Shown piece by piece: positions 14,413 to 56,064 of a DNA stretch of 64,000 nt; positions within the stretch are counted from its first letter, which is position 1; the number at the start of each line of letters is the position of its first letter. Location of the stretch: the NCBI GenBank assembly GCA_002763075.1, contig PFDB01000010.1:6553-70552 (forward strand). The letters run 5' to 3'. The notes under the pieces were generated by a model, which saw nothing but the letters and a program-made list of their open reading frames with translations, did no database searches and was not told the DNA's origin. The stretch comes from Candidatus Pacearchaeota archaeon CG10_big_fil_rev_8_21_14_0_10_34_76. Lineage in GTDB: Archaea; Nanobdellota; Nanobdellia; Pacearchaeales; GW2011-AR1. Made by a program: the position numbers and the translations under genes.

Positions 14413-14458
14413 TTTCCCAGAGAAAATCGAACCCCCACTATTTGGTGTAAACAATAAC
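14413..14458 (-). repeat. tRNA-Val(UAC) 3'-half-like fragment A
   Basis: Minus sense: GTTATTG-TTTACAC-CAAAT-AGTG-GGGGG-TTCGATT-TTCTC-TGGGAAA. This gives an anticodon loop identical to the tRNA-Val at 18795..18865, 9 nt to a T-arm with a TTCGATT loop, and no 5' half. It shares 18 nt exactly with fragment C and 17 nt with fragment B. Confidence 0.6.
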
Positions 14459-14540
14459 ATGGTTTAACTAAGGAAGAACAATAACATTTTAAATTCTTTA
14501 GTTTTTCAAACTACTACGAACGTATAAAACAAATTAAGGG

Positions 14541-16457: not shown

Positions 16458-16496
16458 GGACATAGGGAGAATCAAACTCCCACTATTTGGTGTAAA
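16458..16496 (-). repeat. tRNA-Val(UAC) 3'-half-like fragment C
   Basis: Minus sense: TTTACAC-CAAAT-AGT-GGGAG-TTTGATT-CTCCC-TATGTCC, a perfect 5-bp T-arm with a 7-nt loop and no 5' anticodon-stem partner. 16479-16496 is identical to 14434-14451. Confidence 0.6.
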
Positions 16497-16544
16497 TAAG
16501 GAAGGGATTTTTCTGGGAGAGAATAAGAAGGAGGCATTATATTT

Positions 16545-19539: not shown

Positions 19540-19680
19540 TTTCAATTCCATGAAAAATCCAAAGGTGGTTGCATCATCATTAATAGCCCTAGTTTGTATA
19601 GTCTTAACATTTACAGTCAATTGGCTCTTCATTATCCCCGCTACAGTCTTATCCATATACGGATGGAAACTCCTTATAAA

Positions 19681-19812
19681 ATCAAAAAGTCCTTAAATGA
19701 TTTCTGCGGACTGAAGTCCGCAGTTTGTCAAGAATGCTTCAAGGCATTGCTTGAGGTTTGGATGTTCAAAGTTCTCACGCACCAGGGCGTGTGGTTTTCC
19801 ACAAACTTTGAT
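19681..19812 (+). repeat. multi-hairpin interspersed element, copy R1
   Basis: Starts ATCAAAAAG. Hairpins at 19704-19723 (CTGCGGAC-tgaa-GTCCGCAG), 19729-19753 and 19767-19810. Shares GTCAAGAAT..TTGAGGTTTGGATG.TCAA with copy R2. Confidence 0.7.
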
Positions 19813-19844
19813 ATAATACAAATCATTTTAAACCCATATAAGAA

Positions 19845-20820: not shown

Positions 20821-22428
20821 TTACTCCATACCTGCATAAGGGTTTGAATTCATTCCTGCACCACTCCTCTTATTCCCGGAAGAGATTAAAATATCATCTA
20901 TTCTCAATATCATTATTGCAACTTCAGTAGCAGAACTCACTGCTTGCATTTTCACTTTCAAGGGTTCAATAATCCCTGCTACAATGCAATCCTCAATCTT
21001 ATCATTAAAAAGATTAAGCCCATCTTTAGAAGCTCCAGAAGCATGTCTCTGCTTGAGTTCAGTAAGTACATTTATTGGATCAAGTCCTGCATTTTCAGCA
21101 AGTGTTTCTGGAATACTCTCAAGAGCAAGTGCAAATTCCTCCACAGCTAATTGCTCTCTTCCACCCAGTGTCTTTGAATATTCTCTTAATCTCTTAGCAA
21201 GCTCTATTTCTACAGCTCCTCCTCCTGCAACAACTCTCCCACTCTTTACAGCAGAGATAACATCCCCCAATCCATCTTTTATTGCTCTTTCCATTTCATC
21301 AATAACATGACTTGTACTTCCATATACAAGAATTGTGACAGATTTGGGATTTTCGCATCCCCTAATGTATGTTATTGCTTCATCTCCCCTCTTGACCTCT
21401 TCAACTAGTTTTGCTTTTCCAAAAGACTCCATGCTTAATTCGTTAATATTAGAGATTATTTTTCCAGAAGTAGCCCTTGCAAGTCTGCTCATATCTGACT
21501 TTGATACTCTTCTAAATGCCATGATTCCTGCTCTTGCAAGGTAATATTGAGCAACATCATCAATACCTTTCTGGCAGAAAACAACATTTGCTCCAGAGGC
21601 AATAACCTTATCTGCAATCCCCTTAAGAGCTACCTCTTCAGAAGTGATGAACTCCTGTAATTGTTGTGGCGTAGATATAGATACTTTTGCCTCTCTTTCT
21701 GGGCTTCTTAGCTCAAGAGGCAAATCGAACAAGACAATTTTAGCATCGTGTATCTTTTTTGGCATCTCATCGTGAGTGACTTCTTTGTTTAGCACAACCC
21801 CCTCAACCAACTCGCTCTTTTCAGCATCCTCTCCTTTTATTTTCTCAATTTTTATATCATCAATATTAATTTCATTCCCAACAGAAACACGATCGGCAGC
21901 AGCAACAATCAAGTCAGCAAATTTACTTCGGTTTCCTTCAGCACCTTTTCCAGTCATAGCAGTCATGGCTATCTGCTTTAGAATAGATTTATCTTCAAGA
22001 GGTATAGATATCTCTTTTAAAATTTCTTTTGATTTTTCAGCAGCGAGTGCATACCCTCTTGCTATAACTGTAGGGTGAATTCTTTTATCAAGAAGCTTTT
22101 CAGCATTCTCTAAGAACTTCCCTGCCAGCATCGCCACAGTTGTTGTACCATCACCCACCTCATTTTCCTGGGTTTTAGCAATTTCAGCAATTATTTTAGC
22201 GGCAGGATGATCAATCTCCATCTCATTCAGGATTGTTACTCCATCATTTGTTATTATAATATCTCCTGTGGAATCCACAAGCATCTTATCCATACCCTTA
22301 GGTCCTAAAGTTGTTTTAACAATCTCAGAAACAACTCTTGCTGCAAGAATATTGTTCCTCTGAGCATCTCTCCCCACGGTTCTGGATACATTTTCAGGCA
22401 TAATATAGACAGGTTGTTTATCGCTCAT
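20821..22428 (-). CDS. ths: thermosome subunit (group II chaperonin)
   Basis: [28 protein letters not shown] and VAGGGAVE motifs. Start moved to ATG 22428 (MSDKQ...), which has TATA TTAAAAA (22450-22456) 21 nt upstream; the listed TTG at 22440 is too close to the TATA. Confidence 0.95.
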
Positions 22429-22534
22429 GTTAAATCTCAACCCTCCTCATTTTTAAACATTTATGGATTAAAGAATAACCTTTAAACTTTTCTGCAGGAC
22501 ATATATCATTATAAATAACCTTTTTATTTTTATT

Positions 22535-24046: not shown

Positions 24047-24112
24047 GTAGCATCCTTAGAAAAGAATATTTATGAGAATTGTCTAAAAGAGATAAATTAG
24101 GGAAATGTAAAT

Positions 24113-24231
24113 ATCAAAAAAACGATGTGCCACCACGCCTTAAAAGGCATGGTTTGAAAAGGCACTCGTTTCCGTCAAGAATTGAAAATTCTTGAGGTTT
24201 GGATGCTCAAGGAATCTGTCAAGTTCCTTGA
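24113..24231 (+). repeat. multi-hairpin interspersed element, copy R2 (most complete)
   Basis: ATCAAAAAAACGATG leader; long-range stem CGA(T)GTGCC (24123-24131) with GGCACTCG (24161-24168); hairpin 24175-24195 (8 bp, GAAA-type loop); GGTTTGGATGCTCAA; hairpin 24207-24231 (8 bp). Confidence 0.75.
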
Positions 24232-24336
24232 CATAATCTCCGAAATGCTCTAATATTGTCCCGCTTCTGAAATAAATTTATAACGGAATCTTTAAATATA
24301 ATCCAAGCTAATCCATAAAATAAGAAAGAGGATTAG

Positions 24337-27592: not shown

Positions 27593-27744
27593 CCCCTCAT
27601 AGCTCAATGGTTAGAGCACCTGGCTGTAGTCAATATGACTAACGCTGACTATCTCCAAAAGAGAATGGATGAAGCGCGATCAGACCATATTCGCTAGAAT
27701 ATGACAGAACCCGGGTTACCCCAGTTCGATTCTGGGTGAGGGGA
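27593..27744 (+). tRNA. tRNA-Tyr (anticodon GUA) with an 80-nt intron at 37/38
   Basis: Acceptor CCCCTCA/TGAGGGG (the C1-G72 pair typical of archaeal and eukaryotic tRNA-Tyr), D-arm GCTC-AATGGTTA-GAGC, anticodon stem CCTGG/CCGGG, loop CTGTAG|intron 27630-27709|C, T-arm CCCAG-TTCGATT-CTGGG, discriminator A. The intron 3' ACAG pairs with loop CUGU, a 4-bp helix as in a bulge-helix-bulge motif. Confidence 0.85.
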
Positions 27745-44728: not shown

Positions 44729-45265
44729 TTATATTATTACAAACTGGATTAATAATGAGGAGATTATAAGCAACGCAAATGTCACAATAAGTCCTTGGAA
44801 TGGAATTCCTTTTCCATTTCTCTTTTCTTTTATCTTCCTACTCAATGAAGGAGAGACAAATACTATTACTCCTCCAAATAAACTACTTATCAAAGAGTAG
44901 TCAATAGCATAAGTTATTCCATATTCTCCTAAGAATGGTAAATACAATGGCCCTAAAGCACTAAATATTGGCATCAATGGCAATACAGTAAGAACAAACA
45001 CGCCCACAATTATCAACGTCTTCTGAAATGGAATATATCTTTTTTTTACAATTCTAGCAAACCACATCCCCATAGACATAGCAAAAGCCCCGATGAAAAG
45101 TGCTACGATTACCTTGCTGACTCCAAGCCAAACAGCTCCTGCAGCAGCAGCCCCTGCTCCAATAGTGCAAAGAGGACAATGCGCATATACACTTTCGGCC
45201 AGCATCAGAATAAATACAGGCATAGCAAACAGCCAAACCATCCACTTGTTGAATATTTTTTTCAT
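44729..45265 (-). CDS. polytopic membrane protein with an N-terminal HCPLC motif
   Basis: Signal-like helix, then AHCPLCTIGAGAAAAGAVWLG and four further TM helices. First gene of a seven-gene minus-strand operon. Confidence 0.65.
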   Translation of the reverse strand: MKKIFNKWMVWLFAMPVFILMLAESVYAHCPLCTIGAGAAAAGAVWLGVSKVIVALFIGAFAMSMGMWFARIVKKRYIPFQKTLIIVGVFVLTVLPLMPIFSALGPLYLPFLGEYGITYAIDYSLISSLFGGVIVFVSPSLSRKIKEKRNGKGIPFQGLIVTFALLIISSLLIQFVII

Positions 45266-45286
45266 GCTTACTCAAGTAAGATATTT

Positions 45287-45313
45287 ATTATAAGAGCTTT
45301 TGCGCGACTAGTC
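45287..45313 (-). promoter_or_regulatory. TATA plus GACTAGTC operator module (promoter of the 45265-42224 operon)
   Basis: Minus sense: GACTAGTC (45306-45313, within near-palindrome GCGCGACTAGTCACGC) - 12 nt - TTATAAT (45287-45293) - 21 nt - ATG(45265). 45289-45313 is an exact 25-nt copy of 47765-47789. Confidence 0.7.
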
Positions 45314-45337
45314 ACGCATCACATTCCCCAATGAAAA

Positions 45338-46128: not shown

Positions 46129-46179
46129 TGTGTTTAGATTTACTAAAAAGGCATAACGCCTCCGACCAAAAAAAATAAA

Positions 46180-46245
46180 ATCAAAAAAACGATGCGAAAA
46201 GGTGCTCGTTTTTTGGATGCTCAAGGAACCTGTCAAGTTCCTTGA
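46180..46245 (+). repeat. multi-hairpin interspersed element, copy R3 (internally deleted)
   Basis: ATCAAAAAAACGATGCG..GGTGCTCG keeps the long-range stem with a compensatory T-A to C-G change. This is followed by TTTGGATGCTCAA and a 9-bp hairpin at 46221-46245. Confidence 0.7.
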
Positions 46246-46257
46246 AATAAAAAATAA

Positions 46258-47054: not shown

Positions 47055-47741
47055 TTAGCATCCTCCGACCATTGCTCCTCCAGAAGAGCTTTGTCCTTTC
47101 TCTATCCCTCTGTATAGATTAGATGCAAGATTGATATAATCAGTGCTATCTATTCCATTAGCTTCTAACACTTGTGCTTTCTGCTCATGAATCCCTGGGA
47201 AGAATAGAACTTTCCACTTCCCTAATTCCCTAAGTATATCTGCATCGCTCATTTCAGGATTGTTTATCAAAAGATACTTTGCAAGACCCCTCATTGCATA
47301 GCTATGTGCACATCCACAAGCCCTCTCCCCATTTGAGAAGATAATTGATTCAGCACCACAACAATACTCACAAGAGATTGATCCTGCAATCATTATATAT
47401 CTCTCAAGTTGTTCAGCATTCAACTGCAAGTCTTCGTATTCAGAAAGCTTTGCAATTGTAGCATCCGCAAGCCTTGGATTATTTGGAGATACATCATCGT
47501 AGCTAATCCCCATACTTGCTCCATATACTGCAGGGATTCCCTCAGGTATTATTTCTGAAGCAGAAACTGTCCCAACACCTGTAGCAAGTCCTGTAGGCCC
47601 AATAGATGAATAAACCTTTCCTGTATTAAATACAATTACTAATGCAAGAATAGCTATTATTCCTATTTGGACATAAAGCTCTGTCTTTCCGGAGCTGGTC
47701 GATCCTCCTTTCATTTCATTCTCACTTTCGTGTTTTTCCAT
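47055..47741 (-). CDS. membrane-anchored Cys-rich protein ending in MVGGC
   Basis: TM helix, then an ectodomain with SCEYCCGAESIIFSNGERACGCAHSYAMRGL and C-terminal GGAMVGGC. Confidence 0.65.
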   Translation of the reverse strand: MEKHESENEMKGGSTSSGKTELYVQIGIIAILALVIVFNTGKVYSSIGPTGLATGVGTVSASEIIPEGIPAVYGASMGISYDDVSPNNPRLADATIAKLSEYEDLQLNAEQLERYIMIAGSISCEYCCGAESIIFSNGERACGCAHSYAMRGLAKYLLINNPEMSDADILRELGKWKVLFFPGIHEQKAQVLEANGIDSTDYINLASNLYRGIEKGQSSSGGAMVGGC

Positions 47742-47762
47742 GCAATCTCTAGAATAAAAAAT

Positions 47763-47789
47763 TATATAAGAGCTTTTGCGCGACTAGTC
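47763..47789 (-). promoter_or_regulatory. TATA plus GACTAGTC operator module (promoter of the 47741-46258 operon)
   Basis: Minus sense: GACTAGTC (47782-47789) - 12 nt - TTATATA (47763-47769) - 21 nt - ATG(47741). Confidence 0.7.
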
Positions 47790-47870
47790 TCATAACTATT
47801 TCCCGAGGATAAAAATAATTTAGAGATTCATTACATATATCTTTAAAAATAAAAAATCAATCTTTTCTCT

Positions 47871-54310: not shown

Positions 54311-54550
54311 ATGGAAAATATCACAACAATACAACTAAGAGAAAGCGTCAAAAAAATGCTCGAGCAATTGAAACAAAAAAAGAATGAGACTTATGAAGAC
54401 GTAATTGTGAAACTCATAGATGAAATAGGGGGAGAAAGGAAACGGGTTGAACAACTAATGATTGAAGGTTATAAAGAAATGGCTGAAGAAAGCTTAAAAA
54501 TAACCAAAGAGTTTGAAGCTATTGAAGATTTCAAAGATTGGGAATGGTAA
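54311..54550 (+). CDS. antitoxin candidate (partner of MazF)
   Basis: 79 aa. The N-terminal ITTIQLRESVKKMLEQLK is a beta-strand/helix typical of RHH-type antitoxins. It overlaps the toxin gene by 13 nt. Confidence 0.55.
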   Translation: MENITTIQLRESVKKMLEQLKQKKNETYEDVIVKLIDEIGGERKRVEQLMIEGYKEMAEESLKITKEFEAIEDFKDWEW

Positions 54551-54891
54551 ATATAAAAAAAGGTGACATAATTATCGCTGATTTGGAGCCAGTGAAAGGT
54601 CATGAACAAGGAGGAATAAGGCCTTGCCTTATTATTCAGAATGATTTAGGAAATAAATTCAGTCCAACAACAATAATTTCTGCAATAACTTCCAAAAGAT
54701 TTCTTAAAAAATACCCTACAAACATTGAAATATCCAAAAATGAATCCAAACTTGAAAAAGATTCTACTGTTATGCTAAATCAAATAAGAACAATAGACAA
54801 ATCAAGAATAATAAAGGTGGTCTCTTCTCTGGACAAAGAGACTATGAAAGGAGTTGACCTTGCTCTTAAAAGAAGTCTTGAATTGAATTAA
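54538..54891 (+). CDS. mazF: MazF/PemK family endoribonuclease toxin
   Basis: GDIIIADLEPVKGHEQGGIRPCLIIQND ... TTIISAITSK is the PemK signature. Confidence 0.85.
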   Translation: MGMVNIKKGDIIIADLEPVKGHEQGGIRPCLIIQNDLGNKFSPTTIISAITSKRFLKKYPTNIEISKNESKLEKDSTVMLNQIRTIDKSRIIKVVSSLDKETMKGVDLALKRSLELN

Positions 54892-54894
54892 AAA

Positions 54895-54983
54895 ATCAAA
54901 AAAACGATGCGCCACCCCGCCTTAAAAGATGTTGTTTGAAAATTCTTGAGGTTTAGATTTTCAATGTTTTAGAAAAACTTTGA
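54895..54983 (+). repeat. multi-hairpin interspersed element, copy R4 (truncated)
   Basis: ATCAAAAAAACGATGCGCCACCCCGCCTTAAAAG (2 mismatches to R2 over 34 nt), then TTCTTGAGGTTTAGATTTTCAA and the hairpin CAATGTTTT-aga-AAAACTTTG. Confidence 0.7.
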
Positions 54984-55056
54984 CCTAAAATGTTTTACTA
55001 CTAAACAATTACTAATAAAACGATAGCTTTAAAAATATCTCCCCCTCTTATTTTTT

Positions 55057-56064
55057 ATGCCAAAAAGAATACCTGAAGAAACAAGAGAAGAAATTAAGAG
55101 ATTATACGATAGTGGGAATGGAATATCTCCAGCAGAAATAGCCAGGCAAACAGGAGTTTCGTATGGTTCTGTTTATGGAATGACAAGAGCAAGACAAAGA
55201 ATTAATCCAGAGACAGGTAAGACATTTGCTTCTCAAACAGAATATGGAGATTATCTAACAAGACAAAGAATTAATCCAGAAACAGACAAGCCATTTGCCT
55301 CTAGAGGAGAATATTTAGAGTTTAGAACAAGACAAAGAATTAATCCAGAGACAGATAAGCCATTTGCCTCTAGAGGAGAATATTTAGAGTTTAGAGCAAG
55401 ACAAAGGATTAATCCAGAGACAGATAAGCCATTTGCTTCTGAAAAAGAATATGAAGATTATCTAGTAAGACAAAAAGTTAATCCAGAGACAGGTAAGACA
55501 TTTGCTTCTCAAACAGAATATGGAGATTATCTAACAAGACAAAGAATTAATCCAGAAACAGACAAGCCATTTGCCTCTAGAGGAGAATATTTAGAGTTTA
55601 GAGTAAGACAAAAAGTTAATCCAGAGACAGGAGAACATTTCAAGTCTTTAAGTGAAAGACAAGGTTATCTAGCAAGACAAAGGATTAATCCAGAGACAGA
55701 TAAGCCATTTGCTTCTCAAAAAGAATATTTAGAGTTTAGAGCAAGACAAAGGATTAATCCAGAAACAGACAAGCCATTTGCTTCTCAAGGAGAATATGAA
55801 GGTTATAGTGCAAGACAAAGAAGTCAAAAAGTAAGAAACAGAGAATTAGGTGATTTTATAAGAAGAAGATTAAAATGGATTGGTCTAAATCAAAGTTGGT
55901 TAGCTGAAGAAATAGGTGTTTCTAGACAAGCGGTTAACTTATATGTCGCCGGTAAATCTACTCCGAGGGGTGAAAATTTAAGAAGATTATTATCTGCTCT
56001 GGATATTAAGGAATCAACTAATCTGCCAAAAAGTTTAGAAGATTTAATTGAGGAAAGATTATAA
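55057..56064 (+). CDS. dual-HTH protein with nine tandem 23-aa repeats
   Basis: N-terminal HTH (ISPAEIARQTGVSYGSVYGM), 9 x RQRINPETDKPFASxxEYxxFxx, and a C-terminal XRE-type HTH (LNQSWLAEEIGVSRQAVNLYVAG). Confidence 0.8.
   Translation: MPKRIPEETREEIKRLYDSGNGISPAEIARQTGVSYGSVYGMTRARQRINPETGKTFASQTEYGDYLTRQRINPETDKPFASRGEYLEFRTRQRINPETDKPFASRGEYLEFRARQRINPETDKPFASEKEYEDYLVRQKVNPETGKTFASQTEYGDYLTRQRINPETDKPFASRGEYLEFRVRQKVNPETGEHFKSLSERQGYLARQRINPETDKPFASQKEYLEFRARQRINPETDKPFASQGEYEGYSARQRSQKVRNRELGDFIRRRLKWIGLNQSWLAEEIGVSRQAVNLYVAGKSTPRGENLRRLLSALDIKESTNLPKSLEDLIEERL
55192..55812 (+). repeat. nine in-frame tandem 69-bp repeats
   Basis: Repeat units start at 55192 + 69n. Units 1-2 (55192-55329) and 5-6 (55468-55605) differ at only 4 positions, a higher-order 138-bp duplication. 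Confidence 0.9.

Follow-up and report, generated by a model that had tools for sequence, protein, structure and literature searches.

The described systems closest to the element analyzed here are the REP/BIME repeats and their REPIN-RAYT relatives, the non-autonomous derivatives of IS200/IS605 insertion sequences, and modular repeats of the BOX, Correia, ERIC and RUP type. In IS608, guide and cleavage-site tetranucleotides pair to define cleavage, and BOX/Correia/ERIC/RUP-type repeats have no known transposase. The head of a REP is a GTAG or CGTC tetranucleotide adjoining the palindrome (PMC3733652, PMC2817692). The stretch under study, 64,000 nucleotides of contig PFDB01000010.1 from a Candidatus Pacearchaeota assembly (hereafter the window), carries four copies, designated R1 to R4, of a multi-hairpin repeat. 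An earlier note, made from the letters of the window alone, had not recognized this repeat and had proposed either a structured non-coding RNA (ncRNA) or an element resembling a MITE (miniature inverted-repeat transposable element) or recombination substrate. With the evidence presented below the second of these options fits much better than the first, although the element is not a classical MITE. The four stretches are genuine copies of one repeat family, which is confined to DPANN archaea (Woese- and Pacearchaeota, together the Nanoarchaeota of GTDB) and is uncatalogued, with no Rfam entry and nothing in the searchable literature. The explanation to which we give roughly even credence is that of a non-autonomous, non-coding mobile DNA repeat of DPANN archaea, moved in trans as single-stranded DNA (ssDNA) by a HUH/Y1 enzyme; since no such partner was found, the mechanism is one that we infer.

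The identity of the four copies was established with a covariance model (model R1) trained on 32 metagenome sequences, to which the window contributed none. Run against the 64 kb with filters off, the model returned exactly four matches, all on the plus strand (Table 1), and the next best hit scored 15 bits. The positions and strand listed in the earlier note, which had proposed a covariance-model search for additional copies, are thus recovered by a model derived from unrelated sequences. The strings reported as shared among copies are likewise present: ATCAAAAAAACGATG is the exact start of R2, R3 and R4, occurring three times in the window with 0 mismatches, and the core TTGAGGTTTGGATGCTCAA occurs three times at <=3 mismatches, versus 0.04 expected. 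Over 39 nt of their 3' halves, R2 and R3 show 95% identity. Copy R1 belongs to a second 5' subfamily (ATCAAAAAGTYC), also found at loci L012, L030, L039 and L052 (alignment A2). Compared with shuffles, the RNA fold of R2 reaches z=-6.2 and the ssDNA folds of R1, R2 and R3 reach z=-4.6, z=-6.9 and z=-5.3, respectively. Copy R4 folds as ssDNA no better than shuffles (z=-0.4) and is therefore read as decayed. All window copies are reduced forms relative to the basic unit of the family, and the description of R3 and R4 as internal-deletion variants is borne out, R4 being in addition decayed and unfolded. As the earlier note had held, the resemblance among the copies is not random, and the element is multi-copy, with further copies in DPANN metagenome-assembled genomes (MAGs) and in metagenomes.

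The distribution of the family was assessed by searching one genome per GTDB species with a 19-mer core, which yielded 49 loci, 17 of them in MAGs named Nanoarchaeota, Woesearchaeota or Pacearchaeota. Eight DPANN GTDB MAGs carry the element, and a single Pacearchaeota MAG holds 7 of the 17 loci. Bacterial hosts were rejected, since 31 of the 32 non-DPANN matches to the 19-mer are due to chance and the remaining copy lies on a contig with archaeal genes. This sole true copy outside DPANN-named MAGs (L043, VGJV01000002.1) is labelled Candidatus Liptonbacteria, and the genes of its contig (archaeal signal peptidase I, archaeal RecJ/GAN, FtsZ, GatA) are of archaeal type; it probably represents a DPANN contig mis-binned into a bacterial MAG of the candidate phyla radiation. 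A metagenome scan with the 5' end of the element gave more than 118 loci, with 105 distinct sequences among the matches listed, from groundwater and lakes. Two patterns scanned against IMG/VR revealed no element copy, and a viral origin was rejected, as the only two matches were due to chance and neither was recognized by the covariance model. At the gathering score, Rfam 15 returned nothing but tRNAs in the window, and nothing but tRNAs and an unrelated RT-16 RNA in the 16 loci with full-length copies; over one copy, no match to the element was obtained even at E<=10. The Rfam search suggested in the earlier note thus agrees with its failure to recognize the element, and a literature search by topic and by sequence string retrieved nothing on the family. 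The RT-16 RNA (RF03019, 97 bits; L015 3690-3844, minus strand, in a Woesearchaeota MAG) lies immediately upstream of a 378-aa open reading frame (ORF) and 2.3 kb from an element copy, to which its sequence is unrelated.

In metagenome copies the commonest form of the element is a 122-nt unit, in which two homologous domains, P1 and P4, stand in tandem (Table 1). Each domain comprises an (A/G)GATGC box, a lower stem, an inner hairpin of the form AC-N6-URAA-N6-GT and a loop of 7-9 nt on the 3' side only. P1 begins ~10 nt from the 5' end and P4 finishes 0-3 nt from the 3' end, making both of them subterminal hairpins, and all copies start with AT and end with AT. The pairing partner of the 5' A-run is the central T-run, in which T/G matches the A/C change of the A-run (pair 13/64: CG 18, AU 14). 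Across the family the boxes read GATGC, GTGC or ATGCCA, and extra modules consisting of a box and a hairpin occur at four fixed places, the length of the element ranging from 92 to 393 nt. The optional module P3 of copy R2 is present in 17 GTDB loci and missing from the 122-nt unit, and two samples of one locus (L160 and L137) differ by a 51-nt two-hairpin module with ATGC at both sides. A hairpin is followed by T6 on the plus strand and by T7 on the minus strand.

The apical loop of P1 is itself a site of insertion. An IS5/IS1182-like DDE element (Pfam DDE_Tnp_1, DUF772; terminal inverted repeats (TIRs) CAGGCTGTCCCACAAT; transposase at L159 1616-3058, minus strand) and its 55-nt MITE form lie inside repeat copies at L097 (1775-1895), L112, L120, L131 and L159, at the same spot, TTAAA of the P1 apical loop, in five independent copies, which makes this loop look like a hot spot for insertions. 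In L129 and L168 it is occupied by another, different insertion (GGCAATGTC...).

Table 1. Coordinates and composition of the window copies, the basic unit of the family and the interrupted tnpB site (window positions; matches are those of covariance model R1).
Feature	Coordinates	Strand	Composition	Model match
Copy R1	19681..19814	+	inner hairpin, P3, linker, P4 with inner hairpin; ends GATAT	19677-19820 (+), 34.5 bits
Copy R2	24113..24234	+	5' ATCAAAAAAACGATG, full P1, optional hairpin P3, linker GGTTTGGATGC, P4 without inner hairpin, end GACAT	24109-24240 (+), 61.1 bits, E=1.5e-11
R2, P1 domain	24120..24171	+	lower stem AACGA(T)GTGCC/GGCACTCGTT; inner hairpin ACCACGCC-TTAAAA-GGCATGGT; 3'-side loop TTGAAAA	
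R2, optional module P3	24175..24195	+	hairpin TCAAGAAT-TGAAA-ATTCTTGA (fold)	
R2, P4 domain	24203..24234	+	ATG-C-TCAAGGAA...TTCCTTGA-CAT (fold)	
Copy R3	46180..46248	+	two-domain core, both inner hairpins deleted; degenerate 3' end GAAAT for GACAT	46176-46254 (+), 60.6 bits
Copy R4	54895..54986	+	P1 5' half fused to P3 3' half; P4 diverged	54891-54992 (+), 31.9 bits
Basic unit, part 1			ATCAAAAA(A/C)ACGATG(C/T)GCC; 5' end and 5' strand of P1 lower stem	
Basic unit, part 2			AC-N6-URAA-N6-GT; P1 inner hairpin	
Basic unit, part 3			TTGNNNNN; one-sided loop of P1	
Basic unit, part 4			GGC(G/A)CTCGT(T/G)TTTTGGATGC; P1 3' strand, T-run, second box	
Basic unit, part 5			TCAAGGAAC; P4 lower stem, 5' strand	
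Basic unit, part 6			A-AC-N6-URAA-N6-GT; P4 inner hairpin	
Basic unit, part 7			TTTNGTCAA; one-sided loop of P4	
Basic unit, part 8			GTTCCTTGA-CAT; P4 3' strand and 3' end	
Module sites			inside P1 inner loop; P1-linker gap (P2, P3, as in R1, R2); GGATGC-P4 stem gap; inside P4 inner loop	
Empty tnpB site			AAATCACT-AT-CTTGTTGAT	
Filled tnpB site			AAATCATT-AT-GTCAAGG...TTTTTTG-AT-CTTGTAGAT	

The helices of the element covary strongly. In alignment A3, 97.9% of cells are paired and both sides change in 21 of the 41 pairs, with 206 double-change cells compared to 66 +/- 7 in shuffles and 9-21 with slid partners, and RNAalifold is consistent with the helices on alignments A2 and A3. For copy R2, the P1 domain is based on its fold and on the covariation of homologous columns in A3 (helices 2 and 3), and helix 4, corresponding to P4, covaries at 5 of 7 pairs. 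The T-A to C-G swap between R2 and R3, taken in the earlier note as compensatory, corresponds to a family-wide covarying pair (CG 18, UA 13). The parallel drawn there with R1 does not hold, as CTGCGGAC/GTCCGCAG, aligned with the CGATG..CTCG stem, is actually homologous to the inner hairpin P1a, and that comparison was therefore mis-assigned.

Covariation of this strength, together with RNA folds at z -6 to -8.7, would also be expected of a multi-copy structured ncRNA with a cellular role, such as a ribonucleoprotein scaffold or a regulator, whose hairpins are selected in the transcript. In the same direction, apical loops favor URAA, and some optional hairpins carry GNRA or UUCG loops; UGAA is a known rRNA tetraloop type. 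The pair statistics, however, speak against selection in a transcript. Among the 2669 pairs of 66 distinct copies, 2606 are Watson-Crick, 18 G.U, 21 A.C and 24 of other kinds, so that G.U accounts for 0.7% of pairs and is no commoner than A.C, the mismatch that corresponds to a wobble on the other strand. Strict complementarity is therefore kept and the mismatches look like neutral decay, stem substitutions showing ordinary proportions of transitions and transversions. Moreover, apical loops read URAA in 46 hairpins and its exact reverse complement, UUYA, in 11 (~20% flipped). Turning a loop around while its arms stay in place is something that happens to DNA, and as ssDNA neither strand folds better than the other. 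These observations point to stems maintained at the DNA level, by strict Watson-Crick complementarity, rather than as RNA. Upstream of 121 distinct copies (70 nt), sequence information is ~0 from -70 to -4, with no fixed TATA box or B recognition element, and T5-T7 runs inside and at the end of the element would stop archaeal RNA polymerase. Copies are not syntenic, occur alike in divergent, convergent and tandem contexts, and are in many cases deleted or decayed, including all four in the window. Taking into account also the lack of any Rfam match, we consider a cellular ncRNA improbable.

The element inserts into pre-existing DNA with sharp ends (AT^CAAAAA...CCTTGAC^AT, carets marking the boundaries). 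This is seen in a tnpB gene (L132 3829-5166, plus strand, the same locus as L154 12946-14223) in which a 183-nt copy lies antisense within the ORF, just past the GIDLG (RuvC) motif, leaving the frame open with 62 additional codons. The encoded TnpB matches Pfam HTH_OrfB_IS605, OrfB_IS605 and Cas12f1-like TNB, and the uninterrupted, 87% identical tnpB genes of L203 and L204 provide the empty-site reference (Table 1). Read in the orientation of the element, the filled site is CAAG-AT-CAAAAA...CCTTGAC-AT-AATG, its ends coinciding with the sharp boundaries of the family; the empty site has a single AT, whereas the filled one has AT at each junction. The target-site duplications that the earlier note had suggested looking for therefore amount to at most this 2-bp AT, seen in one empty/filled pair, and nothing longer was found in 48 flank pairs. 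The flanks are A-rich, with A at frequencies of.60 and.67 at positions -3 and -2 and of.58 and.71 at +1 and +2. The positions 5' of the invariant AT thus follow the pattern A.60, A.67, W from -3 to -1; should the target be AT/ATCAA, it would be inseparable from the element.

An AT at both tnpB junctions, and at the start and end of every copy, would also be produced by a classical cut-and-paste MITE whose DDE transposase, like those of Tc1/IS630, duplicates an AT target of 2 bp, and the ends of the commonest subfamily are faintly alike (ATCAAAAAAAC versus the reverse complement ATGTCAAGGAAC). This similarity nevertheless vanishes where the P4 stem differs. When the P4 3' stem varies (TCAAGGAAC, TCGGGGAGC, TCACGAACG), the 5' end, ATCAAAAA(A/C)ACGATG, does not change with it, and because the similarity is lost in the subfamilies with other P4 stems there is no conserved TIR; the terminal CAT, for its part, belongs to the conserved closing stem of P4. 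Strong co-orientation of copies, described below, is unexpected for cut-and-paste transposition of double-stranded DNA, and no DDE gene with these ends was found, the IS5-like one having its own TIRs and merely inserting into the element. A DDE-driven MITE accordingly appears unlikely to us.

Several observations document the mobility of the element. Nine identical 122-mers were found in nine flank contexts in Lake Tanganyika samples, two of them agreeing in the left flank and differing in the right, as recombination or mis-assembly at a repeat would produce, and the presence of identical copies at many sites indicates recent spread. At one locus five copies lie within 9.75 kb among housekeeping genes, and in the dense array of L113 copies separate the endonuclease III, NAC and MinD genes. 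Many contigs end in or at the element, including the same-strain contigs L002 and L004, which begin at window position 24112, one base 5' of R2. In two relatives (L178 and L180; ~60% protein identity, same thermosome-CBS-170-aa synteny), compared via the 170-aa neighbor gene, the region orthologous to that of R2 has no copy, and one of the two has none in 20 kb; the flanks of these relatives are not alignable. Among the fetched loci no empty sites were identified, the only polymorphism being the module gain or loss between L160 and L137. L080 and L115 share an identical copy and a common left flank and have different right flanks, as may result from recombination between copies or from assembly chimeras.

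Adjacent copies on one contig are co-oriented in 21 of 22 cases, at gaps of 43 nt to 22 kb (nominal p ~5e-6, computed after removal of duplicate loci, some of the remaining loci possibly still being related regions). The strand bias noticed among the four window copies thus extends to the family. By contrast, the placement of copies just downstream of a plus-strand gene or tRNA, also put forward in the earlier note, holds in this window and not as a family property: based on crude ORF calls, gene contexts are (+,+) in 31 cases, (+,-) in 20, (-,-) in 19 and (-,+) in 19, i.e. tandem in 31 + 19, convergent in 20 and divergent in 19, so that orientation with respect to genes is near random. As orientation is independent of the neighboring genes, a strand-specific insertion process is the simplest cause. 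In 49 of 76 loci the C-rich strand coincides with the plus strand of the element, on which 45% of coding bases lie; this link is weak and not independent. In the window the plus strand is C-rich throughout.

Movement as ssDNA by a HUH/Y1 enzyme would bring together a set of traits seen in the element, namely the absence of TIRs, two alike subterminal hairpins, a box at each hairpin foot, sharp ends, little or no duplication, a preference for A-rich flanks, co-orientation and Watson-Crick-only maintenance. According to this model, a HUH/Y1 tyrosine transposase of the IS200/IS605 or RAYT type would act in trans and recognize the two subterminal hairpins, and the GATG boxes at the hairpin feet, which are complementary to the termini ATC (5') and CAT (3'), may, by analogy with IS608, pair with them and thereby set the cleavage sites. 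The excised circle would be expected to carry the junction ...CCTTGACAT^CAAAAAAACG, and co-orientation would follow from insertion into the strand that the replication fork exposes.

A number of points weigh against this model, beginning with the search for the enzyme. The window contains no transposase, integrase or reverse transcriptase (RT) domain, and no Y1 gene with the ends of the element was found in ~1.4 Mb of loci. Two kinds of insertion sequence from the same setting were compared, IS200-like (L101, L077, L183-L202) and IS605-like (L203, L204, L132). The former end in ..GGAGGATGTCAC^ with target TTATAAG^ and the latter in ..GGTAGTTCAC^ with target TTTAA^, both unlike the ends of the element, and ~50 kb around those tnpA genes contain no element copy. 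As for the insertion site, the AT found at each junction could reflect duplication of a 2-bp target, and HUH transposition makes none; the empty-site comparison is a single one, between paralogous insertion sequence copies, and the AAW-before-AT preference is weak for an IS200/IS605 target. The tendency of the plus strand to be C-rich and gene-poor runs opposite to the rule known from IS608, except if it is the complementary strand that is active. Lastly, the 80:20 asymmetry of apical loops and the few GNRA/UUCG loops leave room for some RNA-level or strand-specific selection.

The insertion sequence of L101, whose Y1 transposase gene neighbors an element-like hairpin array, was considered as the parent and rejected: it ends at ..GGGTGTCAC, ahead of the array, the adjacency looks coincidental, and relatives of this insertion sequence in 12 other contexts have no element nearby. 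Separately, the IS200-like sequences include a ~700-bp element (L191-L200, P0151; L183-L190, P0076) encoding an identical 133-aa Y1 protein in at least six DPANN contexts. It always follows TTATAAG, ends in GGAGGATGTCAC and has hairpins with TTTA loops; it appears to be an active archaeal IS200 family.

The DPANN populations concerned are rich in Y1 and TnpB genes (480 homologues of a single Y1 protein and 1396 TnpB homologues), and RT genes are common there too. This abundance is also compatible with a different role, in which the repeat would be a mobile element's orphan guide or scaffold RNA, akin to TnpB omega-RNA or IS110 bridge RNA, or an RNA copied by RT and retro-mobilized. Such an RNA would be in keeping with the two stem-loops, which contain internal loops, and with the abrupt change from a conserved 3' end to variable sequence beyond it. 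Yet no copy abuts the 3' end of a tnpB, DEDD recombinase or RT gene, the local TnpB family has an unrelated RE/omega-RNA region, and the sole contact with tnpB is the antisense mid-gene insertion described above. Furthermore, the internal loops lie on one strand only, the loops are identical in all copies within a genome, there is a depletion of wobble pairs, and there is neither a poly-A tail nor a long target-site duplication. We hold an RNA of this kind to be quite improbable.

The hairpin with T6 on one strand and T7 on the other, and the intergenic position of copies, often few nt from stop codons, could in turn point to a cis-acting element of the host, for instance an insulator or a terminator working in both directions, that owes its spread to recombination or gene conversion and not to transposition; the array of five copies amid housekeeping genes could be read likewise. 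However, divergent genes, which require no terminator between them, flank 21% of copies, one copy sits inside the tnpB ORF, and identical copies occur at unrelated sites. A host function of this type would account for the tolerance of copies and not for their spread, and as an origin of the family it seems to us very improbable. For a repeat mobilized as ssDNA, termination is instead likely a side effect: oligo-T terminates transcription in archaea, and each copy, with a hairpin and then T5-T7 on both strands, would be a bidirectional archaeal terminator, an activity that may explain why copies few nt from stop codons are tolerated.

Other candidates were examined and discarded. An integron attC site was rejected in view of the two-domain build, the lack of R boxes (RYYYAAC..GTTRRRY) and the separation of housekeeping genes by the L113 array. 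An archaeal C/D or H/ACA small RNA, or a K-turn, was likewise rejected, as there is no RUGAUGA/CUGA pair, the internal loops are on the 3' strand only and Rfam gives no match, and a hammerhead, suggested by CUGAUGAG in L018, was dropped on anatomy and Rfam. All-vs-all clustering of ORFs around 17 and then ~135 loci revealed no recurring neighbor protein, the clusters obtained being giant surface proteins and translation artefacts. The Cys/His-rich peptides and ORF clusters that might suggest a coding function arise from the translated element itself; hairpin and loop lengths differ between copies by non-multiples of 3, and the frame is therefore not kept.

The window itself is archaeal and DPANN-like, with small genes, 34% G+C and a thermosome gene (20821-22440, minus strand), and homologues of its proteins carry the source labels Nanoarchaeota or Pacearchaeota. 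Copy R1 follows a tRNA-Gly at a distance of 142 nt, R3 sits between convergent genes (flanking ORFs), and R4 begins 4 nt past the stop of a MazF/PemK toxin gene (PemK_toxin E=1e-33). Just 3' of R4 and of a MazE/MazF-like pair (54311-54891), a gene at 55057-56064 (plus strand) with helix-turn-helix domains at both ends contains nine tandem 69-nt (23-codon) repeats (RQRINPETDKPFAS..EY..; 55117-55875). Elsewhere in the window, a 152-nt Rfam tRNA match (27593-27744, plus strand, 48.8 bits), for which ARAGORN gave none, is presumably an intron-containing archaeal tRNA. A 66-nt direct repeat (AGAGAAAATCGAACCCCCACTATTTGGTGTAAA, 71% identical) at 14419-14484 and 16464-16529 brackets ~2 kb of the lowest-GC DNA of the window (29-30%) and may mark att sites of a small integrated element. 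A 72-nt repeat with the shared core TATAAGAGCTTTTGCGCGACTAGTC is found at 45257-45328 and 47733-47804, at gene starts; MarR/TrmB-type regulators are numerous in this region, and the repeat may be a common promoter or operator.

The genomes of DPANN archaea are among the smallest and most gene-dense of any cells, and yet the element can fill nearly every intergenic gap of a region, as in the case of five copies in 9.75 kb. In metagenome assemblies of DPANN it is a likely reason why contigs break or are joined chimerically; it also yields spurious Cys/His-rich ORF calls (MRHHGLKA...) and could be used as a strain-tracking marker. If a dedicated HUH enzyme is involved, the bacterial partnerships between hairpin repeats and transposases would extend to archaea, with a new ssDNA recognition code, and if the two-way termination is real, copies would shape operon structure in DPANN. 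A bolder version, which we think doubtful, is that the family is the first archaeal counterpart of REPIN-RAYT systems, i.e. vertically inherited hairpin repeats served by a dedicated, perhaps domesticated, HUH/Y1 enzyme, with a new code made of a GATGC box and a nested hairpin and with modular hairpin units as the replicating entities. In a yet bolder variant, the one-sided internal loops would be nucleic-acid guides for an unrecognised recombinase.

The comparison with REP/BIME/REPIN-RAYT systems is close in several respects. Both comprise short, extragenic, non-coding palindromic units at high copy number, with a conserved box at the hairpin foot and mosaic arrays, and both share hairpin maintenance, a gene elsewhere acting in trans and side effects on termination and mRNA ends (the last two inferred for the DPANN element). 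The DPANN box, however, is (A/G)GATGC rather than a GTAG/CGTC head, hairpin units and neighboring elements run head-to-tail on one strand instead of forming inverted dimers, its nested hairpins carry one-sided loops, it occurs in archaea, its copies are not depleted between divergent genes, and no repeat-flanked RAYT-like gene was found in the ~1.4 Mb of loci. Non-autonomous elements derived from IS200/IS605 (the PATEs of Haloquadratum; IS608, ISDra2) have in common with it the lack of TIRs, subterminal hairpins at both ends, ends that may pair with boxes at the hairpin feet, an orientation bias and hosts with Y1 TnpA and TnpB; they differ in that the DPANN element, much smaller (122 nt) and modular, has ends matching neither family examined, a weak target and a possible 2-bp duplication. 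Variable internal hairpin modules between fixed ends, stable folds and intergenic copies recall BOX of Streptococcus pneumoniae (boxA-boxB(n)-boxC) and Correia, ERIC and RUP repeats, whose sequences and host domain are unrelated and which are usually discussed as RNA structures, whereas the DPANN pairs suggest maintenance at the DNA level. The copy within a protein gene with an open frame, the 62-codon insert in tnpB, resembles the Rickettsia palindromic elements, but it is a single case and nearly all DPANN copies are intergenic. While failing the defining tests of each of these systems, the DPANN element thus resembles REP/BIME/REPIN or IS200/IS605-derived repeats and, in its modularity, BOX.

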